A stretch of DNA of 64,000 nt from Candidatus Zhuqueibacterota bacterium (GTDB lineage: Bacteria > Zhuqueibacterota > Zhuqueibacteria > Thermofontimicrobiales > Thermofontimicrobiaceae). Each line of letters begins with the position of its first letter. Position 1 is the stretch's first letter. The notes under the pieces are model-generated. The model made no database searches. It saw only the letters and a program-made list of their open reading frames with translations, and was not told the DNA's origin. The stretch is from assembly GCA_049322915.1 (NCBI GenBank), contig JBMOPW010000014.1, positions 344,983 to 408,982 of the forward strand, written 5' to 3'. The translations under genes and the position numbers were made by a program. This document shows, in pieces, positions 15,591-50,570 of this stretch.

Positions 15591-15592
15591 TT

Positions 15593-28363: not shown

Positions 28364-28947
28364 GTAATTGATCACAGGGGATCAAAAGTTGTATTTGTTT
28401 ACTTTGGACAGGATAACAGGATGATAATGATTTACCGGATTATTCTCTATCCGGTAATATCCTCACCTTTCTTTTTACTTCTACCTTATGTGGAGAGAAA
28501 TTCAGCAATAAGCCTACTGGTTTGATAGTGGCCGTTAGATAATTCACCAACTGGACTTCAAACTCCTTTACTATTTTTTCTACGGATTTCAATTCAATGA
28601 TGATCAGCTCGTCGACAATAATATCCGCTTTAAAATTGCCGACGACTACTCCTTCATAATAAACCTTTATGGGTTTTTGTCTTTCTACAGCAAATCCCAT
28701 TTTTTTTAATTCAATTGTCAGGGCATTTTCATAAACAGACTCCAAAAAACCAAATCCTAACATGTTATATACGTTGTAAGCACAGCCAATAATTTTTTCA
28801 GTCAAGCTTGCAAGTTCCATTACGCAGCCTCCTGTGATTTACACGATTATGTTTTGATTAACATGATAAAGAGCTAAAGTTAATTAATCCTGTCTATCCC
28901 AAACATCCTGTTATCCTGTCATTCTTAACTACCCTGTGATCGGTTAC
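28364..28947. mobile_element. Inverted-repeat-bounded cassette carrying the GxxExxY gene (IS66-like GTAA ends)
   Basis: Outer IR GTAATTGATCACAGGG (28364-28379)/CCCTGTGATCGGTTAC (28932-28947), 14/16; inner perfect 17-bp IR GACAGGATAACAGGATG (28407-28423/28904-28920); flanks TAAGTTAC/AAAGTTCT match 5/8 in register. Confidence 0.65.
28440..28820 (-). CDS. GxxExxY protein (PD-(D/E)XK nuclease family)
   Basis: LGFGFLESVYENAL, KADIIV..IIELKSV, QLVNYL, GLLLNF; GGAGG RBS; visibly more AT-rich than its neighbours. Confidence 0.93.
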   Translation of the reverse strand: MELASLTEKIIGCAYNVYNMLGFGFLESVYENALTIELKKMGFAVERQKPIKVYYEGVVVGNFKADIIVDELIIIELKSVEKIVKEFEVQLVNYLTATIKPVGLLLNFSPHKVEVKRKVRILPDRE

Positions 28948-29126
28948 AAAGTTCTAAGTTAATGGACAATCTTCCTGAGTTCAATTGACCGGCGGCTGCA
29001 TCAATCAAGGTTGGAATAAATGCCCCCGGCTGTTTGCCGTCGAGTTTCCCGCGTTCCGGCGCAGGTAGGGATTCCGCAAAATGTCAGAAAATCCTGAGTT
29101 AGCATAAGAGCGCATTGGGACCGGTT

Positions 29127-30812: not shown

Positions 30813-32987
30813 CTATTCAGTCGCCACATTCATTTCTTTTAACAGATGAGTCGCTTTGCCCAATTTTTCCGTGATGAACAGGGCGTAGCGAACATCCACG
30901 CTGATGGTGCGCGTCAATTCCGGATTGAACTGAAAGTCGCTGGTCATGGACTCGTAATCGCCATCGAATACAACGCCGATCAATTCACCCTTTCCATTGA
31001 GCACCGGGCTGCCGGAATTCCCGCCGGTGATATCGGTATCATGCAGGAAATTCACCGGCACATCGTTCAGGTCGGCGTCGAAATACTGACCGAAATCTTT
31101 TTTCTGATAGAGCTCAGTCAATTCGACGGGATTGTCAAAGGGCTCCTCGCCGGTGTCTTTTTCAATGACGCCCTTTAAGGTGGTGTTCCAGTTGTAGGAC
31201 ACAGCGTCGCGGGGATTGTAACCCTTCACGTATCCATAGGTGAATCGCACGGTGCCATTGGCGTCCGGATAGAGGCTGCCCTTTTTCCATTCATAAATTC
31301 CCCGGATGAGCGAAGGCCGCAGCTTGAATACCGCGCCGACAAACGCCTCGTACTTATCATTCATTTCCTTGTTTTCCTCTTCCAGCTTCGCAGCGAGTTG
31401 AATGATGGGGTCGTTCAATGCATTGATTTCAGTTTCTGTTTTATCCATTAATTCCATAGCTCGGTCGAAATCTGTGAACACGGTTCGCGCGAAGATATCT
31501 TCCACGAAATTGTGAATTGCTTGGTTGAGATCATCGCCGCTTTTCCCGCCTGTCAGACCTTCCAACGCGCGAATTTTCTGATTGTCCGGCAGATTGGTCG
31601 CATCCATCAGAGTCATGGCCAGCAATTTTTTATTCGCCGGGATGTCGATCTGATCTCTGCCTGCGGTGAGTTGCTTTTTTATCCGCTCGATATTTTTCTC
31701 GGTATATCCGGGTTCCCGTTCACTTTCGTTTTTTTGTTTTTCGATGCTCCATTTGTAAATGAAGCGGGCATTGGCAAGCAGATCGCTGCTTCCTAAAATA
31801 TTCCCAAGCGATGTCTGCTTTTTATGATAGGTCCGAAGCTCATCATAGATGCGACCTAACTCCGGCAGAACACTCCCATATTTTTTATCCAACTCCGGAT
31901 TCTTTTTCAGGAATGCGGTGAATTCCGCTTCCTGTTTTTGTTTGCGCTCCAGAAGGCGCGACTTCTTTAACCCTTCCACCATCCCTTCGTTGTTCTTAAG
32001 CACATTGTTCAGTCCTTTGATCCGGGCGGCGTATTTGATTTGCAATTCGCGATTATCGCCGGCCAATTCTTCCAGCGCTTTGATGTTCTTTCTGAAAGTC
32101 TCAATCTGTTCCGGATAGGTTTCATTCTGCCACAGGTCAATTGAAAAAGAGCAGCGGTAGCGCATGGTGTTGCCGGGATAGCCAATGACCATCGTGAAGT
32201 CGTTTTCATTAACGCCGTCCAAAGAAACTTTCAGATATTTTTTGGGTTTGAATGGGACGTTCTTTTCGGAGTAATCAGCCGGCTTGCCATCAGGGCCGAC
32301 ATAGGCGCGCATGAAAGAAAAATCGCCGGTGTGGCGTGGCCACATCCAATTGTCGATGTCGCCGCCATATTCTCCAACAGAGCGCGGCGGTGCGTAGACG
32401 ATGCGGACATCTTTCAGCGTCAGATAGGTGAACAGATAGTAATGGGTGCCGCTCAACATTTCGACGATCTGGGCAGAGATGGTTTCGTCTTCTTCGTACT
32501 TCTTCAAAAGCTCGCGTTTGATATTTTCAATGGTTGTGTAGCGCTCGCCATAGGGCATGTCATCATTGACATGCTTCAAAATTTCGGCGGTCACGTCCTG
32601 AAATCCAGTGCAAATTCGCGCGTTGTAGCCTTTGGCCGGTAGCTCTTCTGCCAGCGTCGCCGCTAAAAATCCCTTGCGGATGAAATCCTGGTCAGCACTG
32701 CTCTGGCGCTGAATTGCGCCAAACGCGACATGGTGGTTGGTGATGATGAGACCCTGGTCAGAGACGAATGACCCTGTGCCGCCGCCAATCTGTACTATCG
32801 CATCCGCCAGACTGACGCCGTCAGGATTGTAAATTTGTTCCGGCGTCAGTTTCAGGCCATGCGCCTGCATTTGTTTCCAGGGAAGCTGTTTGAGGGAATT
32901 CAACAGCCACATCCCTTCGTCCGCATGAATGAGCGTGACGCTTAACAGACAGATCAGTACGATCTGAATGACCAGTTTTTTTTGCAT
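30813..32987 (-). CDS. S46 family dipeptidyl peptidase (DPP7-type)
   Basis: ADEGMW mature start, TNHHV, WMWPRHTGDF, DITGGNSGSPV. FDG (Gly, not Arg) at the S1 position suggests DPP7 rather than DPP11. Start MQKKLV at 32987 with GGAG RBS. Confidence 0.92.
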   Translation of the reverse strand: MQKKLVIQIVLICLLSVTLIHADEGMWLLNSLKQLPWKQMQAHGLKLTPEQIYNPDGVSLADAIVQIGGGTGSFVSDQGLIITNHHVAFGAIQRQSSADQDFIRKGFLAATLAEELPAKGYNARICTGFQDVTAEILKHVNDDMPYGERYTTIENIKRELLKKYEEDETISAQIVEMLSGTHYYLFTYLTLKDVRIVYAPPRSVGEYGGDIDNWMWPRHTGDFSFMRAYVGPDGKPADYSEKNVPFKPKKYLKVSLDGVNENDFTMVIGYPGNTMRYRCSFSIDLWQNETYPEQIETFRKNIKALEELAGDNRELQIKYAARIKGLNNVLKNNEGMVEGLKKSRLLERKQKQEAEFTAFLKKNPELDKKYGSVLPELGRIYDELRTYHKKQTSLGNILGSSDLLANARFIYKWSIEKQKNESEREPGYTEKNIERIKKQLTAGRDQIDIPANKKLLAMTLMDATNLPDNQKIRALEGLTGGKSGDDLNQAIHNFVEDIFARTVFTDFDRAMELMDKTETEINALNDPIIQLAAKLEEENKEMNDKYEAFVGAVFKLRPSLIRGIYEWKKGSLYPDANGTVRFTYGYVKGYNPRDAVSYNWNTTLKGVIEKDTGEEPFDNPVELTELYQKKDFGQYFDADLNDVPVNFLHDTDITGGNSGSPVLNGKGELIGVVFDGDYESMTSDFQFNPELTRTISVDVRYALFITEKLGKATHLLKEMNVATE

Positions 32988-33492
32988 ACAGTTGCTCCTA
33001 TGTTTGTGGGTTGGGTGAGTGATGACACAAAGAATTGACGATATGGAGAATTTGAATTGCATACTCGTATGGTGCTTGTGAGAGAAAAAAATTGGAAATT
33101 ATTCAGGTTAGCTGATTCAGAGTCCAGGGTTCAAATTTAGAATCATTTCATGATGTATATTTTGTAAAGGAATAGTCGTAACTGTACAGCCATTAAGCGG
33201 CTGGTTAGCTGACTGGTTGATTTTTGAACACCACGATCAATCGTGGGGTTGGTACAATTTTAAACCAACGCCATGCTTCAGCATGGTCACCTGAGTCGTT
33301 ACAAAAATTTGATGTATTTCCTACGGCGCAGTCGGGTAGAAGTTGCAGGGAAAAATTGGAGGACTGGGTACAAGTCGGAAATAACAACTGGCAGCAGGGC
33401 GGTCGAGGCGCGCGAATTCTGGCACACCATCGGAGCAGCAATGCGCGGCGCAGCGGACTCGGTTTCTTGCCGCTGATGGAAAGCCAATCGCG

Positions 33493-36925: not shown

Positions 36926-39900
36926 TTAGCGAAGATAAATTAATTTGACTGTGTTCGAACGCATCAGGCGATTCGCCTGATGCATTTGCACCTGAGCAAA
37001 GTACACGCCGCTGCCGCAGGACTGGCCATGCGTATCCCGGCCATCCCAGAAAATTTTATGCACGCCCGGGGCAACAATATTCACCGGGATACTCACCACG
37101 ACCTGTCCCCGCAGATTGTAAACCGCCAACCGCGCATCGCCCGGCAGACTCGCTTCGATTTCAATGACTGTGACGGCATTGAAGGGATTGGGGACGTTGG
37201 GCCGAATTCGCAGCGACTGAACCGGCGCATGGCTGGCGCTTTTTCCCTCAACAATTTCGGAAGCGGCCCGCGACTGAATGCAAATATCATCGATGAACCA
37301 GCCGGCCATAGGCCTGGTCTGACTGGAGTCTGTTGCTAATCGAAAACGCAGCAGCAGAGAATCATCGCCGACGCCTGCAAATGGGTCTAAATCCACGAAC
37401 ACCTGACGCCAGTCATCCTGCGTCCCGCTCAAAGCCTCGCCGATGAACTGCCAGTTAGCCCCGCCATCCAGGCTGATCTCGGTGAAGCCGAAATCAACGC
37501 CGGCCTCGATATCATACTTTGTCCGGAAATGAAGGACGAATTGGTACAGCGAAGACCGTGGAATGGCGCCGTCTGCGTAAAGACTGGCGTTGGAATCGTT
37601 GGGATAGGGCGCGCCCGGCCCGGTCGAGATGCAATAGCTGCCGGAAAATGCTTCATTATCATCGAGCGCCCACGAGTCAGAATCCGAGCGCCACAGCGTG
37701 AGGCCATGCTCGAAATTTTCAAAACCGACGGCATAGGATTGAATGTCCGAGACGGCGCGGTTCGGAACAGTAGCGGCGTCGTACGCGGACACGTAATAGC
37801 GCACCGTATCCCCGACAGGAATCCCGGCCGGAATGGCGCCGCTGAACCAATGCGGCTCGGCCAGCGTCAGCGGCAGACTGTCGGCCCCGGTCGCGGCCGC
37901 CCAATGAAGCCATACCGAATTGGGAGCGACTGCAAGATTGTCCTCCACAAAAACGCGAATGGGTCGGGATGCCTTTTGCAGAAAGATATCAGGAAGCGGA
38001 CTGAAAAGAATGGTCGGCGCCGTCTGATCCGATCCCAACAAAAATATGAACGGCGCTGCCTCGCCGGTGACCGGCAGTGTGTGCTGATAATAGGGTGACT
38101 TCATTCCAAAATAATAGCGAACTTCGCCGACAGGAGAATTCAGTCGGATAAATTTCTGGAACTGCGAAAGGCTGACCGGAGACATGGGTGATTCTTCGTA
38201 ATCACTCATGGCGTCGGTCTTCCAGAAGAGGGAGAGCGAATTGATATCCGAGACGCGCGGCGAAAGGTCCACGGTGAAGCAGATCGAGTCTGGCGAAGTC
38301 TCGCTGTCCGCCAGGGGCGTGTGAAGCATTGGCCCCATTGCATTGAGAATCCTTTCCATCAGCTCCCGGCGGATTCTCGACGGGGCAGTTGGATCCGCGT
38401 TGCGGGAAGCATCGGCGGCCTCAAATCCGAACCCGAGGTTCAGTACGCGATGCGACTTTTCGAAAAACACACCAGCGCCCCTGTCCGAATCGTACCGGAA
38501 GCAGGAGACCGCATCCGGCATGGGTTCCAGCCAATCCGGGAATTGGAAATGGGGAGGGATATCCGGCTGGTAAATGGTGAACTCCAGCCCCTGGCCCGGC
38601 GTGCCGGGGATTCCCTGAACCAAAGCCGATCGGCTGTGATCTTCGCGGTAGTCGCTGTGCAGGTAGTGTTGATAAAAATCCACGCTCGATTCGGAGAACT
38701 GGTTATTGCCGTCTCCGCCCGGATCCGCCAGGTCCCAGCCGATATCCTGCCCGGAGAGGAACAGATGACCTCCCTGATTCAGATAATCCTGAAGCGCCAT
38801 GCGGTCTTCCGGAGACAGGCTGGGAAAAGCCCACTCGCAGAACCAGATCACCGTTGGAAAGTGGCTCAGAGTCCGGGCCGGCGGAGTACCCAGCCGGGAA
38901 TGATCCCAGATCAGAAATGGGACGTTGAGCGAGGAAAGCGCGGTGGAATAAAAGCCCTCCACGTTTCGATAGCCATCATCGTCGTCGACCAGCAGCACAG
39001 CGCGTTTGCCGATCATCACGGAGATGGTGTCGCTGCCAACCTTGCCCTGGTCGGTGCGATGCTGGCAGAGTAACTGTGCGACGTGCGGCTCAGCGTTGGA
39101 CGAAATGGCAAAGCGCAGGATATTGTGCACGGCAAAAACGGTATCCGGGGGAATCTGATTCAGTCGCGAGTAGCCTTCGGTGATGCGGATCTGGTCATCG
39201 CTGGTGGTGAGCGTCACTTCGAGAAAAGACGCCGGGCTGATCGAGTAATTCCGAAACCACAGATCGAGTCCAATTTCTTCTCCCCGCTCGATGAGAAAAT
39301 TGCCGTTGCCCCATACCGCATCGGATACGGCCGCTTTGAAGAACTCGATGTTAGCCGGGATTTCATCCTGGACGTCTTCGGTCAATGCGCGATAGGCATT
39401 GACCCGGCCGGCGCCCAACAAATTGGTATAGCCGGGATTGACCGGGTCGATTGGGTCGGCGGTCAAAATCAATTGCCGTTTCAATTGCAGGGCATTGAAT
39501 GTGGGGAACTGGCTTTTCATCAGTCCCAGTACACCAGCCACGACAGGGCTGGCCATGGAACTGCCGGACATCTCTCCGTAGCTGCCGCGGTCGACGGGGA
39601 TGGTGCTCAAAATTCCGGGCCTGCCTGTGCTCTTGTCGCCGCCGGGAGCGGACAGGTCAATGAATGTCCCATAAGTGGCGTAGCTGGCTTTTTCATCGCG
39701 ATCGTTCACAGCAGCCACGGCCACCACGTGGACATAGCTGGCCGGGTAAAAATTGGCGTTCATGTTGGTATTGCCGCCGGCAGCGATGATGATGCAACCC
39801 CGATGAGCGGCGTAGTCGATGATGTCCTGTTCGAACTGGGAGTATGCGCCGGACCGTCCCCAGCTCAGATTGATGATATGCGCGCCATTATCCGCCGCGT

Positions 39901-40699
39901 AAACAATGCCCTCGTACCCGCTGGAGATCTGATAGGTATCATTGTCAGCCGCGACTTTGATCGGCAAAATGGAGCAGTTCCAGCCTGCGCCGGCAACGCC
40001 GGTAATATTGTCGGTCACGGCCGAGGCGATGCCTGCGGTGTGAGTCCCGTGGACGGCGATGCCGGATGGATCTGTTCCGTGACCCGGATTATTGTCGTTA
40101 TCGCCGAAATCCCAGCCGTAAAAGTCATCGGTGTAGCCATTGCCGTCATCGTCAACTCCGGCGCTGCCCGACGCTTCCACCAGGTTGATTCGAATGTTGG
40201 CGGCTAAATCCGGATGATGAAAATCGGTGCCGTTATCGACAATGGCAATGACGGTCGATTCAGAGCCTTTTTGAATGTCCCAGCCCATGAATAGTCCGAT
40301 CTGTTCCAGATGTGACTGGCGCGAAACCAATGTATCGTTGGGAATTGTCCCTTCGACGTAGGAAATATATGTGGGTTCGACATATTCAAAAATATGTGAA
40401 TCGAAAATGCCTGCGGCGAATTCTTCCGGGGGAATGGATTTCGGGAACACGATTTTGTAAAATCGGGAAAGGTCGGGGTGTTCCGTGGCCTGGAAAATTT
40501 TCCCGATGGCAGAAATCGGCAGGTTGTGACCGGGCGCTGCTGATAACTGATTCAGCATCGAAATACTTTTACCGGCCTTCACCTTTGCGACAACGGTCCC
40601 CGGGACAGTCCTGTCCCCCTGATATGGCTGCGAGTCCCTTGCCATTCCATGCCGGAACAGGAATAAAAATACCTGGGCGATTATAAATACTCTTTTCAT
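36926..40699 (-). CDS. Secreted S8 subtilisin-like serine protease, multidomain, with CTD
   Basis: Triad motifs VDNG, HGTHTAG, SGSSMASP; DDDGNGY.DD..GWDF insert; downstream alpha/beta, Ig-like and jelly-roll (GWFIDDI) domains; NVPNPFN CTD. Confidence 0.92.
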   Translation of the reverse strand: MKRVFIIAQVFLFLFRHGMARDSQPYQGDRTVPGTVVAKVKAGKSISMLNQLSAAPGHNLPISAIGKIFQATEHPDLSRFYKIVFPKSIPPEEFAAGIFDSHIFEYVEPTYISYVEGTIPNDTLVSRQSHLEQIGLFMGWDIQKGSESTVIAIVDNGTDFHHPDLAANIRINLVEASGSAGVDDDGNGYTDDFYGWDFGDNDNNPGHGTDPSGIAVHGTHTAGIASAVTDNITGVAGAGWNCSILPIKVAADNDTYQISSGYEGIVYAADNGAHIINLSWGRSGAYSQFEQDIIDYAAHRGCIIIAAGGNTNMNANFYPASYVHVVAVAAVNDRDEKASYATYGTFIDLSAPGGDKSTGRPGILSTIPVDRGSYGEMSGSSMASPVVAGVLGLMKSQFPTFNALQLKRQLILTADPIDPVNPGYTNLLGAGRVNAYRALTEDVQDEIPANIEFFKAAVSDAVWGNGNFLIERGEEIGLDLWFRNYSISPASFLEVTLTTSDDQIRITEGYSRLNQIPPDTVFAVHNILRFAISSNAEPHVAQLLCQHRTDQGKVGSDTISVMIGKRAVLLVDDDDGYRNVEGFYSTALSSLNVPFLIWDHSRLGTPPARTLSHFPTVIWFCEWAFPSLSPEDRMALQDYLNQGGHLFLSGQDIGWDLADPGGDGNNQFSESSVDFYQHYLHSDYREDHSRSALVQGIPGTPGQGLEFTIYQPDIPPHFQFPDWLEPMPDAVSCFRYDSDRGAGVFFEKSHRVLNLGFGFEAADASRNADPTAPSRIRRELMERILNAMGPMLHTPLADSETSPDSICFTVDLSPRVSDINSLSLFWKTDAMSDYEESPMSPVSLSQFQKFIRLNSPVGEVRYYFGMKSPYYQHTLPVTGEAAPFIFLLGSDQTAPTILFSPLPDIFLQKASRPIRVFVEDNLAVAPNSVWLHWAAATGADSLPLTLAEPHWFSGAIPAGIPVGDTVRYYVSAYDAATVPNRAVSDIQSYAVGFENFEHGLTLWRSDSDSWALDDNEAFSGSYCISTGPGAPYPNDSNASLYADGAIPRSSLYQFVLHFRTKYDIEAGVDFGFTEISLDGGANWQFIGEALSGTQDDWRQVFVDLDPFAGVGDDSLLLRFRLATDSSQTRPMAGWFIDDICIQSRAASEIVEGKSASHAPVQSLRIRPNVPNPFNAVTVIEIEASLPGDARLAVYNLRGQVVVSIPVNIVAPGVHKIFWDGRDTHGQSCGSGVYFAQVQMHQANRLMRSNTVKLIYLR

Positions 40700-40817
40700 T
40701 GATATGAGAATTTATGGTCATTACGAAAATTTCGTTCTTTGTAATTTGTTTAAACGAAACGGAATTACAAAGGTTCATCGGCCAGTGAAGCGATGGCGCG
40801 TGGAAGGCCGTTATCGG

Positions 40818-41027
40818 CTACCGGATCAAAATCATTTTGATGCTCCTGGAAAAATCACCGGCCTGAATGCGGCAGAAATAGACGCCGCTGGGACAATCGC
40901 CGGCGTCCCAGATTTTTGCATAGGAATTGGCTGACTGCTTTTCATTGACCAGCTCGGCAACTTGCTGGCCTCTGATGTTGTAAATACCCACCTGCACCCG
41001 GGCCGGTTCGGTTATGGTGTAGCGGAT
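40818..41027. repeat. CTD-coding repeat, copy 1
   Basis: 210 bp with only 2 mismatches to 43036-43245. Confidence 0.9.
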
Positions 41028-42956
41028 GCAGGTTTCGGCATTGAATGGATTAGGGTAGTTTTGGCTTAGAATAAAAAGTGACGGTGAAATCTCAATTGCA
41101 CAATTTTCAATAGAATTGATGGGAGTAAAATATCGGAGTGCATTCCCGACGACGCTTGTTATATTGGGTTCTGTCCAATAATCACCCGGCTGTGCTTGCA
41201 GGCAAAGTTGATCAAAGGACAAGAAAACAGTGGATGAATGAGGACCAAATTTATGAATTCCCATTGCCCTTCCCTGGGCAGAATCGGTGAAGCAAACCGT
41301 TGCCGCATCCGTCGGAATAAAGGCGTCCGCCCAATTGGTAAAGCCCAACTCATACTTACAATTTAAATAAAGCTTCAGGCTATCGCCTATAAACTCAGCC
41401 AATTCACCGCTAATCCAGTCATTTTTTACAGGGTTGATCGGAAACGGATCAGTCGCGATATCGTGTCCTGCGCCTCCAATATATTCAATGCCCAAATATT
41501 TATAATGCCAATCGTCCGGGGCGAATGTAGTGTCATCTTCCATTTCCCAACCGCCGCAGAGAAATCCTGCCCAATCCTGGGACGACCAAAACAGGCATCT
41601 GTACTTGGACTCCAATTCCCCTGATTCAAACCAGGCGCCAACAACGTCATCGTTCATCCATGCCGGCGAGTATGCATCTATCTGAACGAGATAGTTGTAT
41701 TGATTAATTAAGTCCGGTGTGAGTGGTCCGTCGGTTAATCCAATCCATGCATCGTAGGAATATGGCGTCCCATATTGATCTACCCACAGATTGTCATAGT
41801 AGGGATGGAGAATAATGGACGCATCATAGGATGTCCCGTCATCGTTATAAAATACTAACAGTTCATGCATCTTCTTGAAATAGCGAAATGAATATGCACC
41901 GCTATTCGCGACATGTCCACTTTTATCGACCGCTTGAAACTCATAGGTCAGTACATCGCCGGGGTCCATGTAACCAGCAGGTAAAACGGCCTCCCACGTT
42001 CCTTCTATATCTGTACCACTGACCAGGTACATTTTCAAAGTGGAATAATCCCCATCATTTATCTTATAGAAAAGTCTGGCAGAGTCTATTCCTGCCTTGT
42101 CTGGTGATTGTGCATCTAAATCCCAAATGTGACATCTCAATGGCTTTGGATTAGAATTAAGAACGGTACCGTAGGTTTCGGGATTTAGCCACGGTACAGG
42201 GGGATATCCAAATATTTCAACGACAATCAGCCAGGCGCAGGAGTAATTTCGAACCACCCATTGTGGTTCAAAGTCTCCCCAACCTAACTGATAATACTTG
42301 GCTAAACGCAAACCATCATTTTCTCCATTATAGGCCATGGCTTCATTCCCCATGTAATTGCCACCATACGGAACAATAGAAATTATGAATCCTTCACCAG
42401 GATCAAATACATCGCTACCCATTTCAGTCCACACTCGTTCTCCATCAATAATGGGCACAGAAACATTGCCCCACAATTTTTCACCTAAAATTGAGTCATA
42501 GCCAAGAGAATCTTTAACTGGGCAACCACCATTGTTCCATTTTTCGGTCGGAAAGTACCATGGATGCACTCGTTTGTGTATCATTAAATGGAATCCCTCT
42601 GCAATAGGGATACTGCCCCATGCATGCCCGGTAATTCCCACGGCACGAATGTAAAGAGAAGCTGATAATTCATAGTAGGATGAAAGGGTATCGCCGGACA
42701 TGACTCCAAAGTTCGTGTCATAAGTAGGGTAATGTGAAATTGTGTCTGGAACTCCGAGTTGAAAATTAGATAGAGAATTTTGAAGAGAAATTGTTTCATT
42801 ATTCAATAATTGTTTTAACTGCTTCTTTGAAATGGGAATCACATCGCTTTTTACACCCGGCGTGGTTGGTTTCAGAATGGCATATTTTTGAGCAGACAAA
42901 TTTGAAGCGAAGAAGAAAATGGGTAATAAAACAATACTCGTAATAAATATTTTCAT
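40818..42956 (-). CDS. Secreted CTD protein of unknown function, paralog A
   Basis: Signal peptide, AQKYAILKPTT N-terminus, FWSSQDW motif, CTD; GGAGG RBS; homologous to the three genes upstream of it. Confidence 0.85.
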   Translation of the reverse strand: MKIFITSIVLLPIFFFASNLSAQKYAILKPTTPGVKSDVIPISKKQLKQLLNNETISLQNSLSNFQLGVPDTISHYPTYDTNFGVMSGDTLSSYYELSASLYIRAVGITGHAWGSIPIAEGFHLMIHKRVHPWYFPTEKWNNGGCPVKDSLGYDSILGEKLWGNVSVPIIDGERVWTEMGSDVFDPGEGFIISIVPYGGNYMGNEAMAYNGENDGLRLAKYYQLGWGDFEPQWVVRNYSCAWLIVVEIFGYPPVPWLNPETYGTVLNSNPKPLRCHIWDLDAQSPDKAGIDSARLFYKINDGDYSTLKMYLVSGTDIEGTWEAVLPAGYMDPGDVLTYEFQAVDKSGHVANSGAYSFRYFKKMHELLVFYNDDGTSYDASIILHPYYDNLWVDQYGTPYSYDAWIGLTDGPLTPDLINQYNYLVQIDAYSPAWMNDDVVGAWFESGELESKYRCLFWSSQDWAGFLCGGWEMEDDTTFAPDDWHYKYLGIEYIGGAGHDIATDPFPINPVKNDWISGELAEFIGDSLKLYLNCKYELGFTNWADAFIPTDAATVCFTDSAQGRAMGIHKFGPHSSTVFLSFDQLCLQAQPGDYWTEPNITSVVGNALRYFTPINSIENCAIEISPSLFILSQNYPNPFNAETCIRYTITEPARVQVGIYNIRGQQVAELVNEKQSANSYAKIWDAGDCPSGVYFCRIQAGDFSRSIKMILIR

Positions 42957-43035
42957 CGCGCTTTTCCTCCATTTTTAGGTAGGTCTTAGTTTTGAAAGAG
43001 GGTCTCCATCCGGGAGCTGAAGACCATTTTAGGCG

Positions 43036-43281
43036 CTACCGGATCAAAATCATTTTGATGCTCCTGGAAAAATCACCGGCCTGAATGCGGCAGAAATAGA
43101 CGCCGCTGGGACAATCGCCGGCATCCCAGATTTTTGCATAGGAATTGGCTGACTGCTTTTCATTGACCAGCTCGGCAACTTGCTGGCCTCTGATGTTGTA
43201 AATACCCACCTGCACCCGGGCCGGCTCGGTTATGGTGTAGCGGATTGTCGTTTCCGCATTGAATGGATTGGGGTAGTTTTG
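43036..43281. repeat. CTD-coding repeat, copy 2
   Basis: Near-identical to 40818-41063 and to about 45280-45476. Confidence 0.9.
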
Positions 43282-45150
43282 GATAAGGTTATATTCCTGA
43301 TTTTCAAATATAGCTTTCTGTCCCAAAGAAGTGTTTGAAAAAAACCAGTCCAGCGCATCGTTGACGATACTAACACTATTGGGTTCTGTCCAGTAATCAC
43401 TTGGTTGTGTGGTGAGGCAGGCAGGATCGAAAGTTAAAAACACAGTTTTACTGTTTGCATATTGTTTGTAAATTCCCATTGTCCTGCCCATTTCAGAATC
43501 CATAAAACATGTAATTGCTCCCTCGTCTTTGATAAATGCGTCAGCCAAATCCTCCCAACCCAGGTTGGACGAATTCAGATAAAGTTGAAGGGAATCACCA
43601 AGAAAAGCAGCAAGACGTTGGCTGATAGTGCTTTTAGACGCCGGCTTAATGTGAAAGGGATCAGCAGCAATATCGTGCCCGGCGCCGCCAATGTATTGCA
43701 TGCCAATATATTTATTGTGCCAGTCATCCGGAGCGAACGTGGTGTCATTTTCAATTTCTTTACCGCCGCACAATTTGCTTGCCCATTCCTGCGACGACCA
43801 GAAGTAACATCTGTTCCCTGATTCCAGCCAGGCGCCAATGACATCATCGTTCATTGTTGCCGGCGAGTACGCATCAAGTTGAATGAGATAATTATACGGA
43901 TATATCAATTCAGCGGTGAGAGGCCCATCCGTTAATCCGACCCATAAATCATAGGATAATGCGGCGCCATCGTGAAACCAGAGATTGTCATAGACAGATG
44001 AAACGACCCAGGAGCCATAGGAATTCTCATCGGCGTTATAAAAAACAAGTACTTCATTTCGTTTCGTAAAATATCGGAAGGAATTTTTCTGGGATTTCCC
44101 GACTCTGCCCTCTTTATCGGTGGCCCTGAACCAGTATGTCAGGTTGTCCCCTGGATTCATGTAGCCAGCCGGCAGCACAATTCCCCAGTAGCCGTCTTCG
44201 GTTGTGCCGCTGACGAGTTGCATGTCTAAAGTCGCGGTAGTTCCATTATTTATTTGATAATGAAAAGTGGCGGATTCGATACCATAGGTTTCCGGCAGTT
44301 GCGGATCATACGCAGTGATATGGCATTGCATCATTTTTGTATTGGAATTGAGTACGCTGCCATAGTTCATCGGGATTAATTTTGGAGTTGGGTAAAATTC
44401 AACAACAATTTTCCATGTGCAGGAAAAACCGCGAACGACCCATTGGGGCGCATGCTCATGCCGTCCCTCATGGTAATATTTGGTTAATTGTGCATCCAAT
44501 TTCGATCCTTGATAGGTATCGACATAGGTTCCCATAGAGCCATCGCCAAAGGGCGCCACAGATACGACAAAGCCGTCGCCTTCACTGTTGGGAGTTGCTC
44601 CGAGAGCGCTCATATCTGACCAGAAATACTCTCCCTCTTCAATGGGGACAGGCAGATCGCCCCACATTTTTTCTCCCAGCATCGTGTTGTAATTGAGCGC
44701 TTCTTTGAGATAGCAGGCTTTGTCAACATTCCATAAGTCCGGCGGAAAGAACCAGGGATGCGCTGGTTTATGAATCATCAAATAATAACCACTGGCGATC
44801 ACTTCATTTCCCCAGCTATCGGCAATGATTCCGATAGCGTGAATATAGCACGATCCGGGCGGTTCGTAATATGAAGAAAGCGTATCCCCGGGCCCGACGC
44901 CAAGATTGTATCCGAATGTGTTGCAATGCCACAGCGTATCCAGGTCGGTGAACTGAAAATTGCTTTGATCGAGGGGCAAAGGCGTCCTGTTTTTTTGCAG
45001 CAGCATCGTCACCTGTTTTTCTGAAATGGGGATGATGTCGCTTGGAATCCCGGGCGTGGTTGGCTTGAGCATGCCGTAAATTTGAGCGGAGAGATCAGAA
45101 GCAAGGCCAATAATGAGAATGAAAACAAGACTCATGAAATATTTTTTCAT
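43036..45150 (-). CDS. Secreted CTD protein of unknown function, paralog B
   Basis: Same architecture as paralog A (AQIYGMLKPTT, FWSSQEW, CTD); GAGG RBS. Confidence 0.85.
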   Translation of the reverse strand: MKKYFMSLVFILIIGLASDLSAQIYGMLKPTTPGIPSDIIPISEKQVTMLLQKNRTPLPLDQSNFQFTDLDTLWHCNTFGYNLGVGPGDTLSSYYEPPGSCYIHAIGIIADSWGNEVIASGYYLMIHKPAHPWFFPPDLWNVDKACYLKEALNYNTMLGEKMWGDLPVPIEEGEYFWSDMSALGATPNSEGDGFVVSVAPFGDGSMGTYVDTYQGSKLDAQLTKYYHEGRHEHAPQWVVRGFSCTWKIVVEFYPTPKLIPMNYGSVLNSNTKMMQCHITAYDPQLPETYGIESATFHYQINNGTTATLDMQLVSGTTEDGYWGIVLPAGYMNPGDNLTYWFRATDKEGRVGKSQKNSFRYFTKRNEVLVFYNADENSYGSWVVSSVYDNLWFHDGAALSYDLWVGLTDGPLTAELIYPYNYLIQLDAYSPATMNDDVIGAWLESGNRCYFWSSQEWASKLCGGKEIENDTTFAPDDWHNKYIGMQYIGGAGHDIAADPFHIKPASKSTISQRLAAFLGDSLQLYLNSSNLGWEDLADAFIKDEGAITCFMDSEMGRTMGIYKQYANSKTVFLTFDPACLTTQPSDYWTEPNSVSIVNDALDWFFSNTSLGQKAIFENQEYNLIQNYPNPFNAETTIRYTITEPARVQVGIYNIRGQQVAELVNEKQSANSYAKIWDAGDCPSGVYFCRIQAGDFSRSIKMILIR

Positions 45151-45230
45151 CGCACTTACCTCTTTTCAGTGTGAAAGTTAAATTATATGAACTGGTCACC
45201 AGGTCAGAAATGGTGACCGTCCTGATTCGC

Positions 45231-47432
45231 TCAGCGAATCAAAATCATTTTGATGCTATTTGAAAATTCCCCGGCGTTGATGCGGCAGAAATAGACGCCG
45301 CTGGGACAAGCGCCGGCGTCCCAGATTTTTGCATAGGAATTGGCTGACTGCTTTTCATTGACCAGCTCGGCAACTTGCTGGCCTCTGATGTTGTAAATAC
45401 CCACCTGCACCCGGGCCGGCTCGGTAATGGTGTAGCGAATTGTCGTTTCCGCATTGAATGGATTGGGGTAGTTTTGTTCGAGTTGAAAGTGAGTCGCCGC
45501 AGCCGGCTCAGGGTAACAGGCGACGGATACCGGCGTGCCAAACCAGGTCAACGCGGCGTTGAGGATGCTGTAGACATCGGTCTCGATGTGGTAGGCGCCG
45601 GTTGATTCATCGTAATTGGGCGCCATGTCCGGGTAGGCAGTGTCCAGCGCAAGCTGGTCAAAGGTGAGAAACACAGTTTTATTGCCGGCGTACTCGTTGT
45701 GAACGCCCACGACTTTTTTCCCGGTCCCATCGAAAAAGCAGGCGCTGGCAGTCCCGGCGTCGGACACGGAAATCGCATCGATGAAATTGGGAAAATCGAG
45801 TTCGTAGTAGGGATGGTAATAGAGCACGAGCGAATCGCCCAGAAACGTATCGATGGGCCCGCTGAGAAAATCGGCCGAATCCGGAACGATTTTGAACGGA
45901 TCCATCTGCGTATCGATCCCGCTGATATTTATATCCTGCGGCCCGATCCGTTGAATTCCCAGATACATGGCATGCCAGTCATCCTCTGCAAAGACCGAGT
46001 CTCGCCCGGCGTTGAGACAATACCCCCATTCCTGGGATGACCAGAATAGGCGCCGGCTGCCGCTCGCCAACCAGGCGCCGATGACATCGTCGTTCAGCGT
46101 GGCCGGCGTGAATCCATCCACCTGGACAATATCATTGTAAAGTGCAACCAGGCCTTCGGTGAGAGGCCCGTCCTTTGCGCCGCTCCAGACGTCATAAAGA
46201 TGCTCGCTTCCGGAGAAATAGAGCGACTGCAGGGATTCTGAATAGTCAGAAATATCATTGAAAAAAGCCAGCAGTTTATACCGTTTCAGGAAGCAGAGGA
46301 AGGAATGCTCCCCGGACGTGGCTGTCTGGCCGGCTCTGTCGGTCGCGCTGAAATAAAAGTACAGCGTCTCCCCGGGATGGATGTAGCCGTTGGGCAGGTC
46401 GGCGCGCCAGTTGCCGTTGGTGGCAGTCCCGGCGTAGCGATGCATGTCTATTGAATTGTAAGAACCGTCGTTCAATCTGAAATGGAGCCTGGCGCTGGCA
46501 ACGCCGGCTCGCGCCGAATCAGCCGCATCGTAATCCTGAATGGTGCAGGTGAGCGCTTTGGCAGAGGCGTCGATCACGGTGTAAACAGGGAGAGTCGGCG
46601 TAATCGCCGGCGGTGAATTTTCAGCATATTCCACAACAGCGAACATCTGCCACGTGTAATGGCGAATGTACCAGCCCCATTCTCCGGCTGGCCCTCCGCC
46701 CGGATTGGCGTCGGTATTGTCGTAAAATTTGAGCCCGGGATAGGGCGGGCCATAGTCCGCGGTCGCCAGGATATCCTGCCGGCCCCGGGACGACCAATCA
46801 CGACCGGCCACTGTATAGACAATGGCAAACCGCTCTCCGGCGTTGATGACCGGCTCGGCTTCAAAATCGGCCAGCGCCACTTTGAGCCAGTAGTTATCGT
46901 TAGGGATGGAGACAGAAACGCCGGTCGCGCCGCCCCACATCAGCTCTTTCAGAGGATCGTAACTCCAATCGCTGCCTTTCCAGGAGCCATCGCTGCTGGT
47001 GGTCCCGCAGGCTTCCTGGCCCGTGCCGTAATAGCCGATCCAGCCGGATTCGTCGACCGCGACATCGGGAATGCCCTCTGGGAAGTCGGTTTTGTACAAT
47101 TGCAGCGCGCCGTAGTTGTGATAGCCGCAGCGATAAAAATAGATCCAGACTTCTTTGACAGTGCAGGTCGCCGCTGACTCGAACCATTCGAAAAAGACAT
47201 CCTGACTCCATCCGCCAATGAGGTAATTGTAATCGCCGGGATAAGGCCCCAGCGTGTCAATGGCATCGTTCTTGAAATGGAGTAACTCGGACGTGGCAGC
47301 GATCGTCGGTGAGTGACGCAGTGGGTGTATTTCGCTGGAGTGAGGCCGCAACAGGCCAGTGTGCTGAGATTGTGAAGCGATCGGGCAAAGCAAAAGTGCA
47401 AACAGACTTACCGTTTTTATCTTGATTTTCAT
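45231..47432 (-). CDS. Secreted CTD protein of unknown function, paralog C (most divergent)
   Basis: Shares the Ig-like and FWSSQEW domains and the CTD; the N-domain is divergent; start MKIKIK at 47432 with GGAG RBS. Confidence 0.85.
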   Translation of the reverse strand: MKIKIKTVSLFALLLCPIASQSQHTGLLRPHSSEIHPLRHSPTIAATSELLHFKNDAIDTLGPYPGDYNYLIGGWSQDVFFEWFESAATCTVKEVWIYFYRCGYHNYGALQLYKTDFPEGIPDVAVDESGWIGYYGTGQEACGTTSSDGSWKGSDWSYDPLKELMWGGATGVSVSIPNDNYWLKVALADFEAEPVINAGERFAIVYTVAGRDWSSRGRQDILATADYGPPYPGLKFYDNTDANPGGGPAGEWGWYIRHYTWQMFAVVEYAENSPPAITPTLPVYTVIDASAKALTCTIQDYDAADSARAGVASARLHFRLNDGSYNSIDMHRYAGTATNGNWRADLPNGYIHPGETLYFYFSATDRAGQTATSGEHSFLCFLKRYKLLAFFNDISDYSESLQSLYFSGSEHLYDVWSGAKDGPLTEGLVALYNDIVQVDGFTPATLNDDVIGAWLASGSRRLFWSSQEWGYCLNAGRDSVFAEDDWHAMYLGIQRIGPQDINISGIDTQMDPFKIVPDSADFLSGPIDTFLGDSLVLYYHPYYELDFPNFIDAISVSDAGTASACFFDGTGKKVVGVHNEYAGNKTVFLTFDQLALDTAYPDMAPNYDESTGAYHIETDVYSILNAALTWFGTPVSVACYPEPAAATHFQLEQNYPNPFNAETTIRYTITEPARVQVGIYNIRGQQVAELVNEKQSANSYAKIWDAGACPSGVYFCRINAGEFSNSIKMILIR
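45280..45476. repeat. CTD-coding repeat, copy 3
   Basis: Near-identical core (ATGCGGCAGAAATAGACG...GGGTAGTTTTG); the last ~50 bp of the gene have diverged. Confidence 0.85.
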
Positions 47433-47605
47433 GTGACCAACTCCCAATGTCGGTTTTGTTTTCTATCAACAAAACGAGCGTCAGGCTGAGAGCAGTGTAG
47501 CATGGCAGGAACTCATTTTCCTCAGGTCCAGCGCCCGCCGGCGCTTTTGGTGGGAAGATTTTTGTTTCGATTGCAAAATCACTGACTTCCAGAATCATTT
47601 CGGCT

Positions 47606-47645
47606 AAAAAAAACCGTTGAGGAGATACCGCCCTCCTCAACGGTT
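47606..47645 (-). terminator. Rho-independent terminator after paralog D
   Basis: 13-bp stem AACCGTTGAGGAG/CTCCTCAACGGTT followed by a T run on the minus strand. Confidence 0.85.
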
Positions 47646-47681
47646 AACAAATTCACTTACCCTATAAAACGAGATCAAAGA

Positions 47682-49823
47682 TTAGCGCAACAGCATCATC
47701 TTCATTGTTTTGCTGAAGTCACCAGCATCGATACGATAGAAGTAAACACCGCTTGCCATATCTTTGGCATTCCATGTAACATGGTAAGTTGCAGGAGCTT
47801 TATGTTCGTTCACCAAATCAGCGACTTTCTGGCCCAGGACGTTGTAAACGCTAAGTTTCACGAGACCTGGCTGAGAAATGCTGTAGGTAATTTTGGTTTC
47901 CGGATTGAACGGATTGGGATAGTTCTGATTCAGGCTGTAGCTTGTGACGACACCAGGAGTGGTCTCTTCAACATCGCTGCCTAAGCCGAACCACAACAGG
48001 GATTTTCCAATGATACTGGAAACATTGGGCTCTGTCCACCAATAGCCTGGTGCTGTATCCAGGGTTAAAGGATCGAAGGTCAGGAACACTGTCTTCGAGC
48101 TTGCTTGTTCTGTGTGGAGACCCATGGTTCTGCCCTGAGCTGAATCTGTGAAGCATACAACAGCGTGGGAAGCAGCAGTCACGGCGTCACCCCAGTTTGT
48201 CCAGCCAAGTTCATAATTGGTGTTGATGTACAGGGTCAAACTGTCAGCCAGGAACGCAGCCAGGTCGCCGGTAATTCCATCGCCGGCAGCCGGGACAACC
48301 GGGAATGGATCAGCAGCAACGTCATGGCCTGCGCCACCGACGTATTCCAGACCCATGTACATATTGTGCCAATCATCAGCGGCAAAGGTGGAGTCATTAG
48401 CAGCACCCCAGCCACCGCAGAAGTAGCCGGCCCATTCCTGAGAAGACCAGAACAGGTTTTTGTTGCCAGCGGCAAACCAGGCGCCAAACACGTCGTCGTT
48501 GAGCGTGGCCGGTCCAAATACGTCTAATTGGACAATATAATTATACTGGTCAATCAGCGTGCTGCTGACAGGACCATCGGCAAGGCCAACCCACACATCG
48601 TAGGTATATGGAGTGCCATCCGCGGCTAACCACAGATTGTCATAGTAGGGATGGAGAATGATAGACGCATCGTACGATGTGCCGTCATCATTGTAGAACA
48701 CCAGCAATTCGGTTGTTTTGGCGAAGAAACCGTAGGAGTTTTCCGGGCTTGTGGTGGCCATTCCAGCTTTATCGGTTGCATCCCAGTAAAAGGTCACAAT
48801 ATCACCGGGGGTGATAAGATTCGCCGGAACGGTGGCTTCCCACATACCATCTGTGTCTGCTCCACTTGCTAACGCAGCAGCGACAGCGGTGTAAGCGCCA
48901 TCATTGACTTTGTAGTACATATTGACGGTGGCAGCGCCAGCCTGAGCCGGGTCATTGGCGTCGATGTCAGTAACATGAACTGCAAGCGTTCTGGCATCGG
49001 CTGACAACACGGTGGAATAGGTAGTCGGAGTAACCGTCGGAGCCGTGTTCTGGTAGAATTCAACCACTAACAACCAGGTACACTGGTAGTTACGAGCCAC
49101 AAATTGAGCCTGATGGCCGCTCCATCCAGCCTGATAGAATTTCGCAACGCGAGGGACATCGCTCACGCCAGTATAGTTCTGGGCGTCTGTGCCCATATAA
49201 GCGTTGGATTCGCCAAACGGAACCACAGAAACGACAAAGCCTTCACCCTCGCTATCGGGTTCATAGCCTAAGAAAATCATTTCTGTCCATACTCTTTGTC
49301 CGTCAACAACGGAAGCAGGGAAATCACCCCACATTTTCTCGCCCAACAGAGTGGCATAGCCCAATGAGTCTTTGGTCGGGCATCCAGCGCCGGACCATTT
49401 TGCATCAGCAAAATCCCAGCCATTAGCAGCTTTGTGGATCATTAAATTGAAACCGCTGGCAATGGGATTGCTGGTGCCCCATAGCTGTCCAACAATACCG
49501 ATGGCTTTGATGAAGCATGCGGCTGACGGTTCGTAATACGAAGAGTTCGTATCATTGACCGCGACGCCCCAGTTCACATCGGTTGTGGTGCTATGGGCAA
49601 TGGTATCAATAACACCCATGTGGGTGGCGTTGAACACCAAGTTTGCGTTCAAATCATTTTTCATTAATTGATCGAGTTGCTTTTTGGAAATTGGAATGGC
49701 TTCGCTTTTTACGCCTTTGGTGGTGGGTTTCAGGATGGCGTATTTTTGGGCGAATACGCTTGTAGTAAACGCTACAAGTAAAACTAAAACTAATAGCAAT
49801 GTGTACCTTTTCATAAATTCCAT
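47682..49823 (-). CDS. Secreted CTD protein of unknown function, paralog D (first in the array)
   Basis: Signal peptide, AQKYAILKPTT, FWSSQEW, and a distinct CTD; start at 49823 or 49814 (GGAGG RBS fits 49814). Confidence 0.88.
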   Translation of the reverse strand: MEFMKRYTLLLVLVLLVAFTTSVFAQKYAILKPTTKGVKSEAIPISKKQLDQLMKNDLNANLVFNATHMGVIDTIAHSTTTDVNWGVAVNDTNSSYYEPSAACFIKAIGIVGQLWGTSNPIASGFNLMIHKAANGWDFADAKWSGAGCPTKDSLGYATLLGEKMWGDFPASVVDGQRVWTEMIFLGYEPDSEGEGFVVSVVPFGESNAYMGTDAQNYTGVSDVPRVAKFYQAGWSGHQAQFVARNYQCTWLLVVEFYQNTAPTVTPTTYSTVLSADARTLAVHVTDIDANDPAQAGAATVNMYYKVNDGAYTAVAAALASGADTDGMWEATVPANLITPGDIVTFYWDATDKAGMATTSPENSYGFFAKTTELLVFYNDDGTSYDASIILHPYYDNLWLAADGTPYTYDVWVGLADGPVSSTLIDQYNYIVQLDVFGPATLNDDVFGAWFAAGNKNLFWSSQEWAGYFCGGWGAANDSTFAADDWHNMYMGLEYVGGAGHDVAADPFPVVPAAGDGITGDLAAFLADSLTLYINTNYELGWTNWGDAVTAASHAVVCFTDSAQGRTMGLHTEQASSKTVFLTFDPLTLDTAPGYWWTEPNVSSIIGKSLLWFGLGSDVEETTPGVVTSYSLNQNYPNPFNPETKITYSISQPGLVKLSVYNVLGQKVADLVNEHKAPATYHVTWNAKDMASGVYFYRIDAGDFSKTMKMMLLR

Positions 49824-49967
49824 CCTCCAGCTAATTTAAGGATTGTCTTTTAATAAACTTCCGTTCTAAAAGATGTTACTTCGGTGGAACGAATTTTCTT
49901 TCCCTGCAACCTCCTTTCATAGGGTAAGGAAAAAAAAGTGGGTAAGTGATAATTTTAAAGGCTGTTT

Positions 49968-49996
49968 AATCTAAATAAATTTTTTTAAAATTGCAA
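49968..49996 (-). promoter_or_regulatory. Putative sigma70 promoter for paralog D
   Basis: Minus strand TTGCAA, 17 bp, TAGATT in an AT-rich tract. Confidence 0.45.
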
Positions 49997-50570
49997 CAAA
50001 AAAGTAAAGTTTTTTTATGCAAATTTTATGTAATCATGGACTCACGCCCGGGCACGACATTTCTACAAATTTGATGCCTGAAAAAATGAGTGTGACAGAC
50101 GGGTATAACTTAAATAAAATTAAGAGAAGAAAATTCAGGAAATGCTCCCGGCGAACCGGGTTATGCAACGTTGTTCATAGATGTGTAGAAAGAATTTGCA
50201 CATGATTGTATCATGGTTTTCATGCGATGCGACTCGAAATTATAAGGGTCAATCGGCAGTGTACTGCCAACATCATGGCGTTCAACAGTCGGCGTTTTTC
50301 TACAGGCCCGGAAATGGAGTCGCATCAGGAGAGAATGAGCCCGGTGACAGGTAGTCTGGTCGTCGCTGATGAATCATGTCGTGATTCCGAACGGTCAGCT
50401 ATCTGTCGTCTTTACAAGATTACACATGGCAGGTGACGACTGACCGGGATCGGCTCTTCCCTGCCATGCTGGTTCCGGACGGCGGCCATTGCGATGCAAC
50501 AGAAGGGCCGGGTGGTAAAACTTCACAACCCTGATACATGCGACACACTGCCAATTCTCCGGATGAACGG

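Follow-up and report, generated by a model that had tools for sequence, protein, structure and literature searches.

What do four paralogous secreted proteins, encoded side by side in the genome of a Candidatus Zhuqueibacterota bacterium (assembly GCA_049322915.1), do for the cell? Their genes, called D, C, B and A in the order of reading, lie at 40818-49823 on the minus strand of a 64,000-nucleotide stretch of contig JBMOPW010000014.1 (hereafter the window, whose positions are used throughout). The open reading frames (ORFs) and their alignment confirm an earlier proposal, made from the letters of the DNA and here termed the sequence-only reading, that this site holds four co-oriented secreted paralogs; the products span 704-738 residues and the copies are 38-53% identical to D (Table 1). 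The same reading took D for one major subunit of a surface layer (S-layer), sheath or filament, with C, B and A as minor variants and a protease alongside. Our analysis points elsewhere: at a little below an even chance, the four paralogs are anchored at the surface and, without being catalytic themselves, serve as binding or adaptor proteins in extracellular proteolysis and the uptake of peptides, and capture of protein food is more likely than a surface layer. We favour this reading because of the predicted folds, the missing catalytic triad, the presence of the same kind of module inside peptidases and glycosidases exported by a type IX secretion system (T9SS), and the linkage of such genes to peptidases and to an outer-membrane importer.

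An AlphaFold model of D, built from 34 family members (pLDDT 81), divides the protein into a putative signal peptide (residues 1-24), a linker of low confidence (25-65), a jelly-roll, an Ig-like domain, an alpha/beta domain, a second low-confidence linker (616-639) and a beta sandwich (642-712) that forms the C-terminal domain (CTD). In its secondary structure, beta strands fill 71-256, a beta sandwich 263-366 and alpha/beta elements 373-612. This bears out the layout of putative signal peptide, beta-rich N-domain, Ig-like domain, alpha/beta domain and CTD read earlier from the sequence. All five motifs quoted at that time lie in invariant columns of the alignment of the four paralogs, in the forms YDxW.G..DGP, NDDV.GAW, FWSSQ(E/D)W, DDWH..Y.G and TVFL(T/S)FD. 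As modelled, a D-family protein is in kind a multi-domain T9SS cargo built from known folds.

In the full-length model, the alpha/beta domain matches 3rht_A (Z 14.8, rmsd 3.1, 200 residues aligned), the middle domain of the glycoside hydrolase family 42 (GH42) enzyme 5xb7 (Z 14.7) and 2gk3/3soz (Z ~14), together with IFT52 and OST48. A separate model of D residues 362-622 on 115 sequences (pLDDT 94, pTM 0.93) was scanned without preselection against 48,161 solved chains and returned 5xb7_A (Z 14.3), 3rht_A (14.2), 2gk3_A (13.9), a ThuA-like protein (12.7), IFT52 5fms_A (11.9, 198 aligned), OST48 6s7o_G (11.9) and site-1 protease (S1P) 8uw8_A (10.3). Across both models the alignment to 3rht_A covers 200-201 residues at Z 14.2-14.8 and rmsd 3.1-3.5, and the glutamine amidotransferase domains of GMP synthetase and anthranilate synthase match at Z 11-11.7. 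The predicted fold of the domain is therefore that of the flavodoxin-like class I glutamine amidotransferases (GATase1/GIFT-like).

This domain resembles the non-catalytic GATase1/GIFT domains of 3rht, STM3548 (2gk3), the GH42 middle domain, the N-terminal part of IFT52, OST48 and S1P in that it shares their fold over ~200 of its 244 residues (Z 10-14.8) and is likewise without a catalytic triad. Unlike these families, it has no match to their Pfam models: a search with 20 alpha/beta domain sequences at E<=1 gave no relevant model, PF09822 (ABC_transp_aux) included, and one stray CHASE8 hit; a remote homology may exist all the same. It further differs in being predicted to be extracellular and exported by the T9SS, in being joined to a jelly-roll and an Ig-like domain, and in having an Asp/Trp pattern of its own. 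Its neighbours in the ESM Atlas (TM 0.63-0.79) are unnamed parts of S8 and M6 peptidases that are T9SS cargo, of GH18 enzymes, and the GH42 middle domain; given such neighbours it would be a recurrent accessory module, although all scores of this feature search are below 0.9 and serve as leads only.

Is the domain catalytic? Across the 115 members aligned, every Cys or His column stays below 60% (C557 in 40/115, H486 in 46/115, H570 in 32/115), and since none is conserved, the Cys-His-Glu triad of the amidotransferases is, as judged from the alignment, absent from the D family. A Ser-His-Asp triad (S460/S461 with H486), of which the four paralogs show the Ser/His pair, was rejected, as these residues are not conserved in the 115 members of the wider family; the two columns after strand 4 hold Ser in 57 and Ala in 31 sequences at position 460, and Gly in 56 and Ser in 52 at position 461. 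Searches of Pfam, NCBIfam and PDB sequences gave no match to a characterised enzyme family, the PDB search with the four paralogs returning a CTD hit (8glj_D, E 0.054) and noise. The earlier remark that no catalytic motif is recognisable thus holds for Cys/His conservation and for catalytic family matches by sequence. What is conserved among the 115 members is an acidic and aromatic set: D409, W411, G417, Y427, P438, W449, E/D463 (111/115), D477, G491, D501, D546 (115/115), F580, D584, W596 and W611. These residues could form a ligand or calcium site, or an active site of a kind not yet recognised.

The last option leads to an alternative that we consider unlikely, namely that the proteins are undescribed enzymes (for example glycosidases, esterases or amidases) with a new active site of carboxylates and aromatics in the GATase1-like domain, the jelly-roll and Ig-like domains binding the substrate as in GH2-type enzymes. 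The conservation of D409, E/D463, D477, D501, D546 and D584 together with W411, Y427, W449 and W596 speaks for such enzymes, as does the N-terminal position of the three-domain unit in longer fused proteins. Foldseek on the whole D model also ranks GH2 enzymes first (E 4e-8), but with TM only 0.17-0.24, and the ranking appears to reflect the modelled arrangement of jelly-roll and Ig-like domain. On the other hand, no catalytic family matches by sequence, the closest folds (3rht, GH42 middle domain, IFT52, OST48) are non-catalytic GATase1-like domains, and no nucleophile-type residue is conserved. A structural explanation of the acidic residues is at hand as well: in S1P, the part that the structure paper names a GIFT subdomain holds a putative calcium in an acidic pocket (PMC11231238). 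An identity as GH42 or GH2 glycoside hydrolases does not fit, the model having no TIM barrel, the GH42 matches being limited to the middle domain and no Pfam glycoside hydrolase hit being found.

The jelly-roll is the most variable part among the four paralogs. At fold level only, with 5-11% identity, it matches jelly rolls of capsids and of phage baseplate or tail-tip proteins (9euj_G, Z 13.7, rmsd 3.3, 150 aligned; 8h2i_bG, Z 12.9; 9d93_Pa, Z 12.8; 8zdp_v), phage receptor-binding and capsid proteins being among the matches at Z 12-13.7. The Ig-like domain matches that of PPAD (4ytb, Z 12.7, rmsd 2.3, 98 aligned, 17% identity). D is comparable to the PPAD and gingipain cargo of Porphyromonas gingivalis, with which it shares a similar Ig-like domain and a type A CTD. 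It differs from that cargo in having neither a deiminase nor a peptidase domain, and in that the Ig-like domain stands in mid-protein, not directly before the CTD.

Export by the T9SS is well grounded, because a CTD is present in all four paralogs (PF18962 35.8-39.5 bits, cut-off 27; TIGR04183 41-44.6 bits, cut-off 23) and because the same genome encodes the translocon SprA (712.8 bits, cut-off 200) and two PorU sortases (868.7 and 818.5 bits, cut-off 420). At the other end of the protein, the model shows a hydrophobic N-terminal helix (3-24), and an AxA-like site precedes a Gln in the sequences. The earlier expectation of T9SS-dependent surface or secreted proteins agrees with these results.

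The gene that follows A encodes a subtilase, and its domains connect it to the array. It consists of an S8 domain (148-431, Peptidase_S8 149 bits), a GIFT-like domain (~565-790), an Ig-like domain (~908-990), a MAM-like jelly roll (1055-1142) and a CTD. Profile comparison with hhalign relates the alpha/beta domain of D to subtilase residues 555-800 (probability 90.4%, E 1.4e-6, 194 columns) and the Ig-like domain of D to residues 890-992 (probability 92.6%, E 4.5e-7), while the N-domain of D showed no relation to any non-catalytic segment of the subtilase (probability <=0.2%). Because residues 555-800 are homologous to the D domain, which structurally matches the GIFT part of S1P, the subtilase would have the S8 plus GIFT-like layout of site-1 protease. 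As in S1P, a GIFT-like domain is then found within an S8 protease, here the product of the neighbouring gene. Read along its length, the subtilase would have S8, beta-sandwich and GIFT-like parts in the layout of the eukaryotic site-1 protease, extended by the Ig-like, MAM-like and C-terminal domains. A 326-member ESM Atlas cluster of S8 T9SS cargo, commonest in Calditrichota, also contains an unnamed GIFT-like module.

The link to a protease, which the sequence-only reading had already suspected, proves stronger than could be seen from the one sequence, as the gene pair is conserved down to 28% identity. In related genomes, 10/22 loci have, no more than 5 kb downstream and on the same strand, a subtilase of 1227-1320 residues that matches the window's enzyme in its catalytic as well as its long non-catalytic part (L014, L016, L018, L032, L036, L041, L042, which is cut by a contig end, L044, L045 and L047). 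It also follows the D-type gene at two distinct metagenome loci, L050 (= L049) and L053, and among the subtilase-linked loci are some from families in which the D-type protein shares no more than 27-29% identity with D. Other peptidases adjoin as well: a C25 peptidase sits between the D-type gene and the subtilase in L047, and M14 carboxypeptidases adjoin the subtilase (L045) or a long fused D form (L031, L048). Each of these two long forms (L031 7522-11814, minus strand, 1430 residues; L048 2-4018, plus strand, at least 1338 residues) is followed by an M14 carboxypeptidase of ~975 residues with MAM domain and CTD instead of the subtilase.

A second linkage concerns uptake. The comparison of synteny in related metagenome-assembled genomes (MAGs), which had been suggested as a check, revealed besides the subtilase pair a cassette at 5/20 loci compared (L038, L040, L044, L046 and L047, from three deeper families). 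Its order is a TonB-dependent receptor (CarboxypepD_reg, Plug, barrel), a ~1030-residue protein with a PorZ-CTD-like C-terminus, a PorV/PorQ-family barrel (166 bits, cut-off 90) and, as fourth gene, the D-type gene. An orthologous cassette (60% identity) exists in the genome of the window without a D gene, beside an OPT oligopeptide transporter and a C25 peptidase.

SusD/E/F-type proteins and the RagAB peptide importer are accessory surface binding and import parts of nutrient-utilisation loci in Bacteroidota. The D-type genes resemble such Sus/Rag loci in standing, in three families, beside a TonB-dependent receptor of CarboxypepD_reg-Plug-barrel type and secreted hydrolases. Unlike SusD/E/F and RagB, D is not a lipoprotein and has no SusD/RagB fold, its export and anchoring would go through a T9SS CTD, and its cassette includes a PorV/PorQ-like barrel. 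No sequence or fold relation of D to SusD/E/F turned up, no search having been aimed at one.

We infer surface display, binding, cooperation with the protease and the kind of substrate, and the steps would be as follows. The proteins would leave the cytoplasm by the Sec pathway, the signal peptide ending just before the Gln, cross the outer membrane through the T9SS guided by the type A CTD, and either stay on display at the cell surface or be released from it. In its mature form the protein would present a jelly-roll, an Ig-like spacer and a triad-less GIFT-like domain with its conserved acidic and aromatic patch. The variable jelly-roll may be the substrate-facing part that captures a polymeric substrate, while the Ig-like and GIFT-like modules, present in the subtilase too, could position the D-type protein beside the protease. 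The resulting peptides would then be taken up by the cell, and four diverged copies would widen the range of substrates. If the paralogs are indeed substrate-specific binders, the array records a recent adaptive diversification of that range.

Several results weigh against these steps. The jelly-roll matches hold at fold level only, as given above, and so many conserved acidic residues may instead point to an active site not yet recognised, or to no more than a structural calcium site. A subtilase is not adjacent at 12/22 loci, four of which have <3 kb of downstream sequence, and four loci of family f4 (L017, L038, L039 and L040) are among those without one, L039 being cut 0.7 kb downstream. 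In the window's own family no TonB receptor adjoins the gene pair; upstream of it lie homologues of MurC and Jag. Finally, given the terminator that follows D (see below), C, B, A and the subtilase need not share a transcript with D.

The conserved gene pair and the homologous modules can also be read in another way, which we hold to be distinctly unlikely: the D-type protein would be a dedicated regulator or maturation factor acting in trans on the neighbouring subtilase, like SPRING or the pro-domain on S1P, by way of the shared GIFT-like and Ig-like modules. As described in the S1P structure paper, the oxyanion hole of this S8 protease is stabilised by the GIFT subdomain, which packs on the catalytic domain, and S1P activity is licensed by a separate protein (PMC11231238); the match of this S1P part to the D domain (8uw8_A) fits such a role. 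A predicted complex of subtilase residues 145-790 with D residues 265-614 (score 0.00, mark 0.32) is evidence neither for nor against binding. Against a dedicated regulator stand the twelve loci without an adjacent subtilase, the four f4 loci included, and the C25 and M14 peptidases that D-type genes also adjoin. Moreover, the subtilase has a GIFT-like domain of its own, and it is difficult to see why a single protease should need four diverged copies.

The binding and adaptor reading may be extended, although we regard the extension as speculative and on the whole improbable. FCB phyla other than the classical Bacteroidota would have a counterpart of the SusCD 'utilisome' that is built with the T9SS and has the D family as one component. 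In it a TonB receptor would be served by CTD proteins held on the outer membrane by dedicated PorV/PorQ-like barrels, not by lipid anchors, and D-type binders together with S1P-like, C25 and M14 peptidases would supply the receptor with protein. The idea comes from the cassette and from the number of similar gene pairs in the genome of the window: of 30 PorV/PorQ-family matches above the NCBIfam cut-off, 19 lie within ~200 bp downstream of a large ORF (621-1398 residues), and the C-terminal ~140 residues of these ORFs match the ~1030-residue cassette protein with its PorZ-like CTD. These pairs suggest that such a scheme would be in use many times over. Examples outside the window are found at G000:C2:9887-14066 (L057 5831-10070), C11:12084-13570 and C35:206772-208307, and in one example examined a TonB-dependent receptor precedes the ORF/PorV-like pair. 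Receptor, CTD protein and PorV-like barrel thus look like a repeated module in this genome.

How the array arose bears on the surface-layer proposal. Scanning the phylum, we find the D family in 24/167 genomes and in 10/13 of the window's own family, mostly with 1-2 copies each. A genome of the same genus (locus L016) has three tandem copies, orthologous to D, C and B, and no counterpart of A. In a quick maximum-likelihood tree with SH-aLRT supports, D, A and B fall into one clade at the level of the genus (SH-aLRT 99), D pairing with the first gene of the L016 array and A being sister to the B pair; single-copy relatives are closest to this clade, and C, the most divergent paralog, stands with its same-genus ortholog on a longer, older branch. 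Because most relatives are single-copy and D, A and B form a clade at the level of the genus, the four-gene array appears to be a recent, genus-level tandem amplification of one ancestral gene. Exchange between the copies seems to have continued: over their final 253 nt, the DNA of A, B and C is 89-96% identical, although these genes are otherwise far more diverged, which we read as a spread of the sorting domain by gene conversion among A, B and C, not D. A patch of 145 nt that is 77% identical between A (41720-41864) and D (48566-48710), with the identical peptide block ELLVFYNDDGTSYDASIILHPYYDNLW, seems to be another place where paralogs exchanged sequence.

The flanking signals agree for the most part with what had been noted before. 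The hairpin after D, with its 14-bp stem and T run, ranks first in strength among the 24 terminator-like sites of the region scanned; all four genes have a Shine-Dalgarno-like sequence (D GGAGGA, C GGGAG, B AGAGG, A GGAGGA), intact also in C, B and A, and the C/B, B/A and A/S8 gaps hold weak hairpins only. Likewise, D is rich in Ala and Thr (11.3% and 9.0%, vs 6.3% and 4.9% in A). The promoter assigned to D is not confirmed: sigma-70-like sites occur at chance level (18 vs 16.3 expected from shuffles), none of the five genes (the four paralogs and the subtilase) has a TAnnTTTG motif upstream, and what precedes D is only the 747-bp spacer with its AT-rich stretch. The codon adaptation index, proposed as a check on expression, was computed with 27 ribosomal and elongation-factor (EF) genes as reference and percentiles over 4206 crude ORFs. 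D is indeed higher (0.761, 66th percentile) than C (0.739, 32nd), B (0.733, 26th) and A (0.720, 15th), and the subtilase gives 0.758 (62nd), but the index is uninformative on expression in this genome since the median of the reference (0.737) lies below that of the genome (0.751).

We find it very unlikely that D is the main building block of a T9SS-exported S-layer, sheath or filament, with C, B and A as minor variants and the subtilase as their processing enzyme. Tandem paralogous CTD proteins, the strong terminator after D alone and the distinct, Ala/Thr-rich composition of D would fit such a structure, as would the fold match to the GH42 middle domain, which is an oligomerisation domain. 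TfsA and TfsB of Tannerella forsythia are tandem S-layer proteins exported by the T9SS, and they resemble the array in being tandem paralogous CTD proteins; the domain types, the single-copy ancestry and the gene neighbourhood of the D family differ, and no similarity was seen, no search having been aimed at one. Against the proposal speak the rule of single copies among relatives, the domains of hydrolase-accessory type and the peptidase and TonB-receptor-cassette neighbours, which point to nutrient acquisition. The unit also heads long cohesin/dockerin or FG-GAP proteins, and the codon index, uninformative as it is here, carries no sign of exceptional expression. The 'minor subunits' are better understood as recent duplicates, because D, A and B form a genus-level clade.

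That the paralogs are generic adhesins or biofilm-matrix proteins unrelated to proteolysis, with incidental neighbours, is just as improbable: the run containing the stretch is labelled biofilm metagenome (and is possibly the very sample from which the stretch came), adhesins often have jelly-roll and Ig-like domains, and with at least 150 CTD-bearing ORFs in the genome CTD neighbours can arise by chance, but the same large subtilase recurs across families sharing 27-29% identity, for which chance is hard to invoke. Among public sequencing runs, one DNA run contains 0.99 of the words of the stretch and a cave metagenome 0.10; no RNA run is among the matches listed.

Irrespective of its role, the family is broad and unnamed. 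In the four paralogs, the type A T9SS sorting domain is all that Pfam and NCBIfam recognise (in the subtilase they find Peptidase_S8, a MAM-like domain and a CTD), and neither the D family nor its jelly-roll and GATase1/GIFT-like modules are covered by these libraries. A word-indexed search gave 32 full-length relatives with the source labels Calditrichaeota or KSB1. In an exhaustive search with a 712-position profile, scores of 228-1098 bits are reached by the best 150 cluster representatives (clusters at 50%), which are mostly 700-790 residues long and match end to end; the family thus comprises at least 150 clusters (50% identity) at >=228 bits, looser counts being inflated by the ubiquitous CTD and Ig-like parts. 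Source names are generic ('T9SS type A sorting domain-containing protein' or 'hypothetical protein'), in keeping with the earlier statement that the family has no name. Some members come from MAGs labelled Bacteroidota and Gemmatimonadota, and the D family appears to be an unnamed T9SS cargo of KSB1-type bacteria and other FCB-group MAGs. At the level of listings and abstracts, the literature yielded nothing on the D family, and no publication was found that joins 'KSB1' with 'type IX secretion'.

KSB1-type and related uncultured FCB bacteria have very large T9SS secretomes, mostly annotated as 'sorting domain-containing protein'. A widespread, unnamed three-domain unit, genetically tied to an S1P-like subtilase, to C25 and M14 peptidases and to a TonB/PorV-like cassette, offers a testable handle on protein harvesting in these bacteria, and with it a GATase1/GIFT-like module is defined that is secreted, has no triad and is absent from current domain libraries. 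The unit is also found in fused forms, at the N-terminus of longer proteins with cohesin, dockerin, HYDIN-type Ig or BNR modules.

Table 1 Position of the genes, of the domains of D and of flanking elements in the window (residue numbers refer to D).
Feature	Position	Strand	Remarks
Gene D	47682-49823	-	713 aa from first ATG
Gene C	45231-47447	-	738 aa from TTG; 38% identity to D
Gene B	43036-45150	-	704 aa; 47% identity to D
Gene A	40818-42956	-	712 aa; 53% identity to D
Subtilase gene (S8)	36926-40699	-	1257 aa; Peptidase_S8 and CTD; downstream of A
D, N-terminal jelly-roll beta sandwich (model)	49056-49619	-	residues 69-256
D, Ig-like domain (model)	48720-49049	-	residues 259-368
D, alpha/beta domain, GATase1/GIFT-like (model)	47979-48710	-	residues 372-615
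D, type A T9SS sorting domain	47685-47921	-	PF18962 35.8 bits; TIGR04183 43.9 bits
Intrinsic terminator-like hairpin after D	47612-47645	-	14-bp stem, 6-nt loop, T run
Spacer upstream of D	49824-50570	-	747 bp, AT-rich stretch; presumed promoter region, no consensus promoter found
253-nt repeat, CTD-coding 3' end	A 40817-41069; B 43035-43287; C 45230-45482	not assigned	B 96%, C 89%

Two of the gene starts are probably to be moved. The true start of D is probably the second ATG, at 49814, because the spacing to the ribosome-binding site fits and the ESM Atlas record begins at residue 4; that of C is probably the ATG at 47432 rather than the TTG.

On another contig of the genome, a protein of 1732 residues (G000:C44:116688-121886, L013 6689-11887, plus strand) starts with the signal peptide, jelly-roll and Ig-like domain of the paralogs (profile positions 1-368, E 3e-49); after these come 12 FG-GAP repeats, then ASPIC/UnbV, dockerin and cohesin modules and a CTD. 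Its gene comes after a GldG-like ABC-transport accessory gene cluster. Within the window, a T9SS cargo of 1641 residues at 19960-24885 (plus strand) joins CARDB, C39-like peptidase, BACON, cohesin and dockerin domains to a CTD. Cohesin and dockerin in this protein and in the fused D forms hint at a cellulosome-like surface assembly.

The window as a whole is rich in genes related to proteolysis, and an S46 (DPP7/11-type) peptidase (30813-33062, minus strand) and an AcrB/HlyD-type efflux pair (25092-30401, minus strand) lie a few kb downstream of the array. Positions 12001-20000 have a GC content of 0.35-0.40 (vs 0.45-0.57 elsewhere) and contain three plus-strand genes at 12702-14435, 14445-15590 and 15593-19414; two of the three products are CTD proteins and one of the three has a beta-helix. 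This low-GC stretch may be an acquired island.

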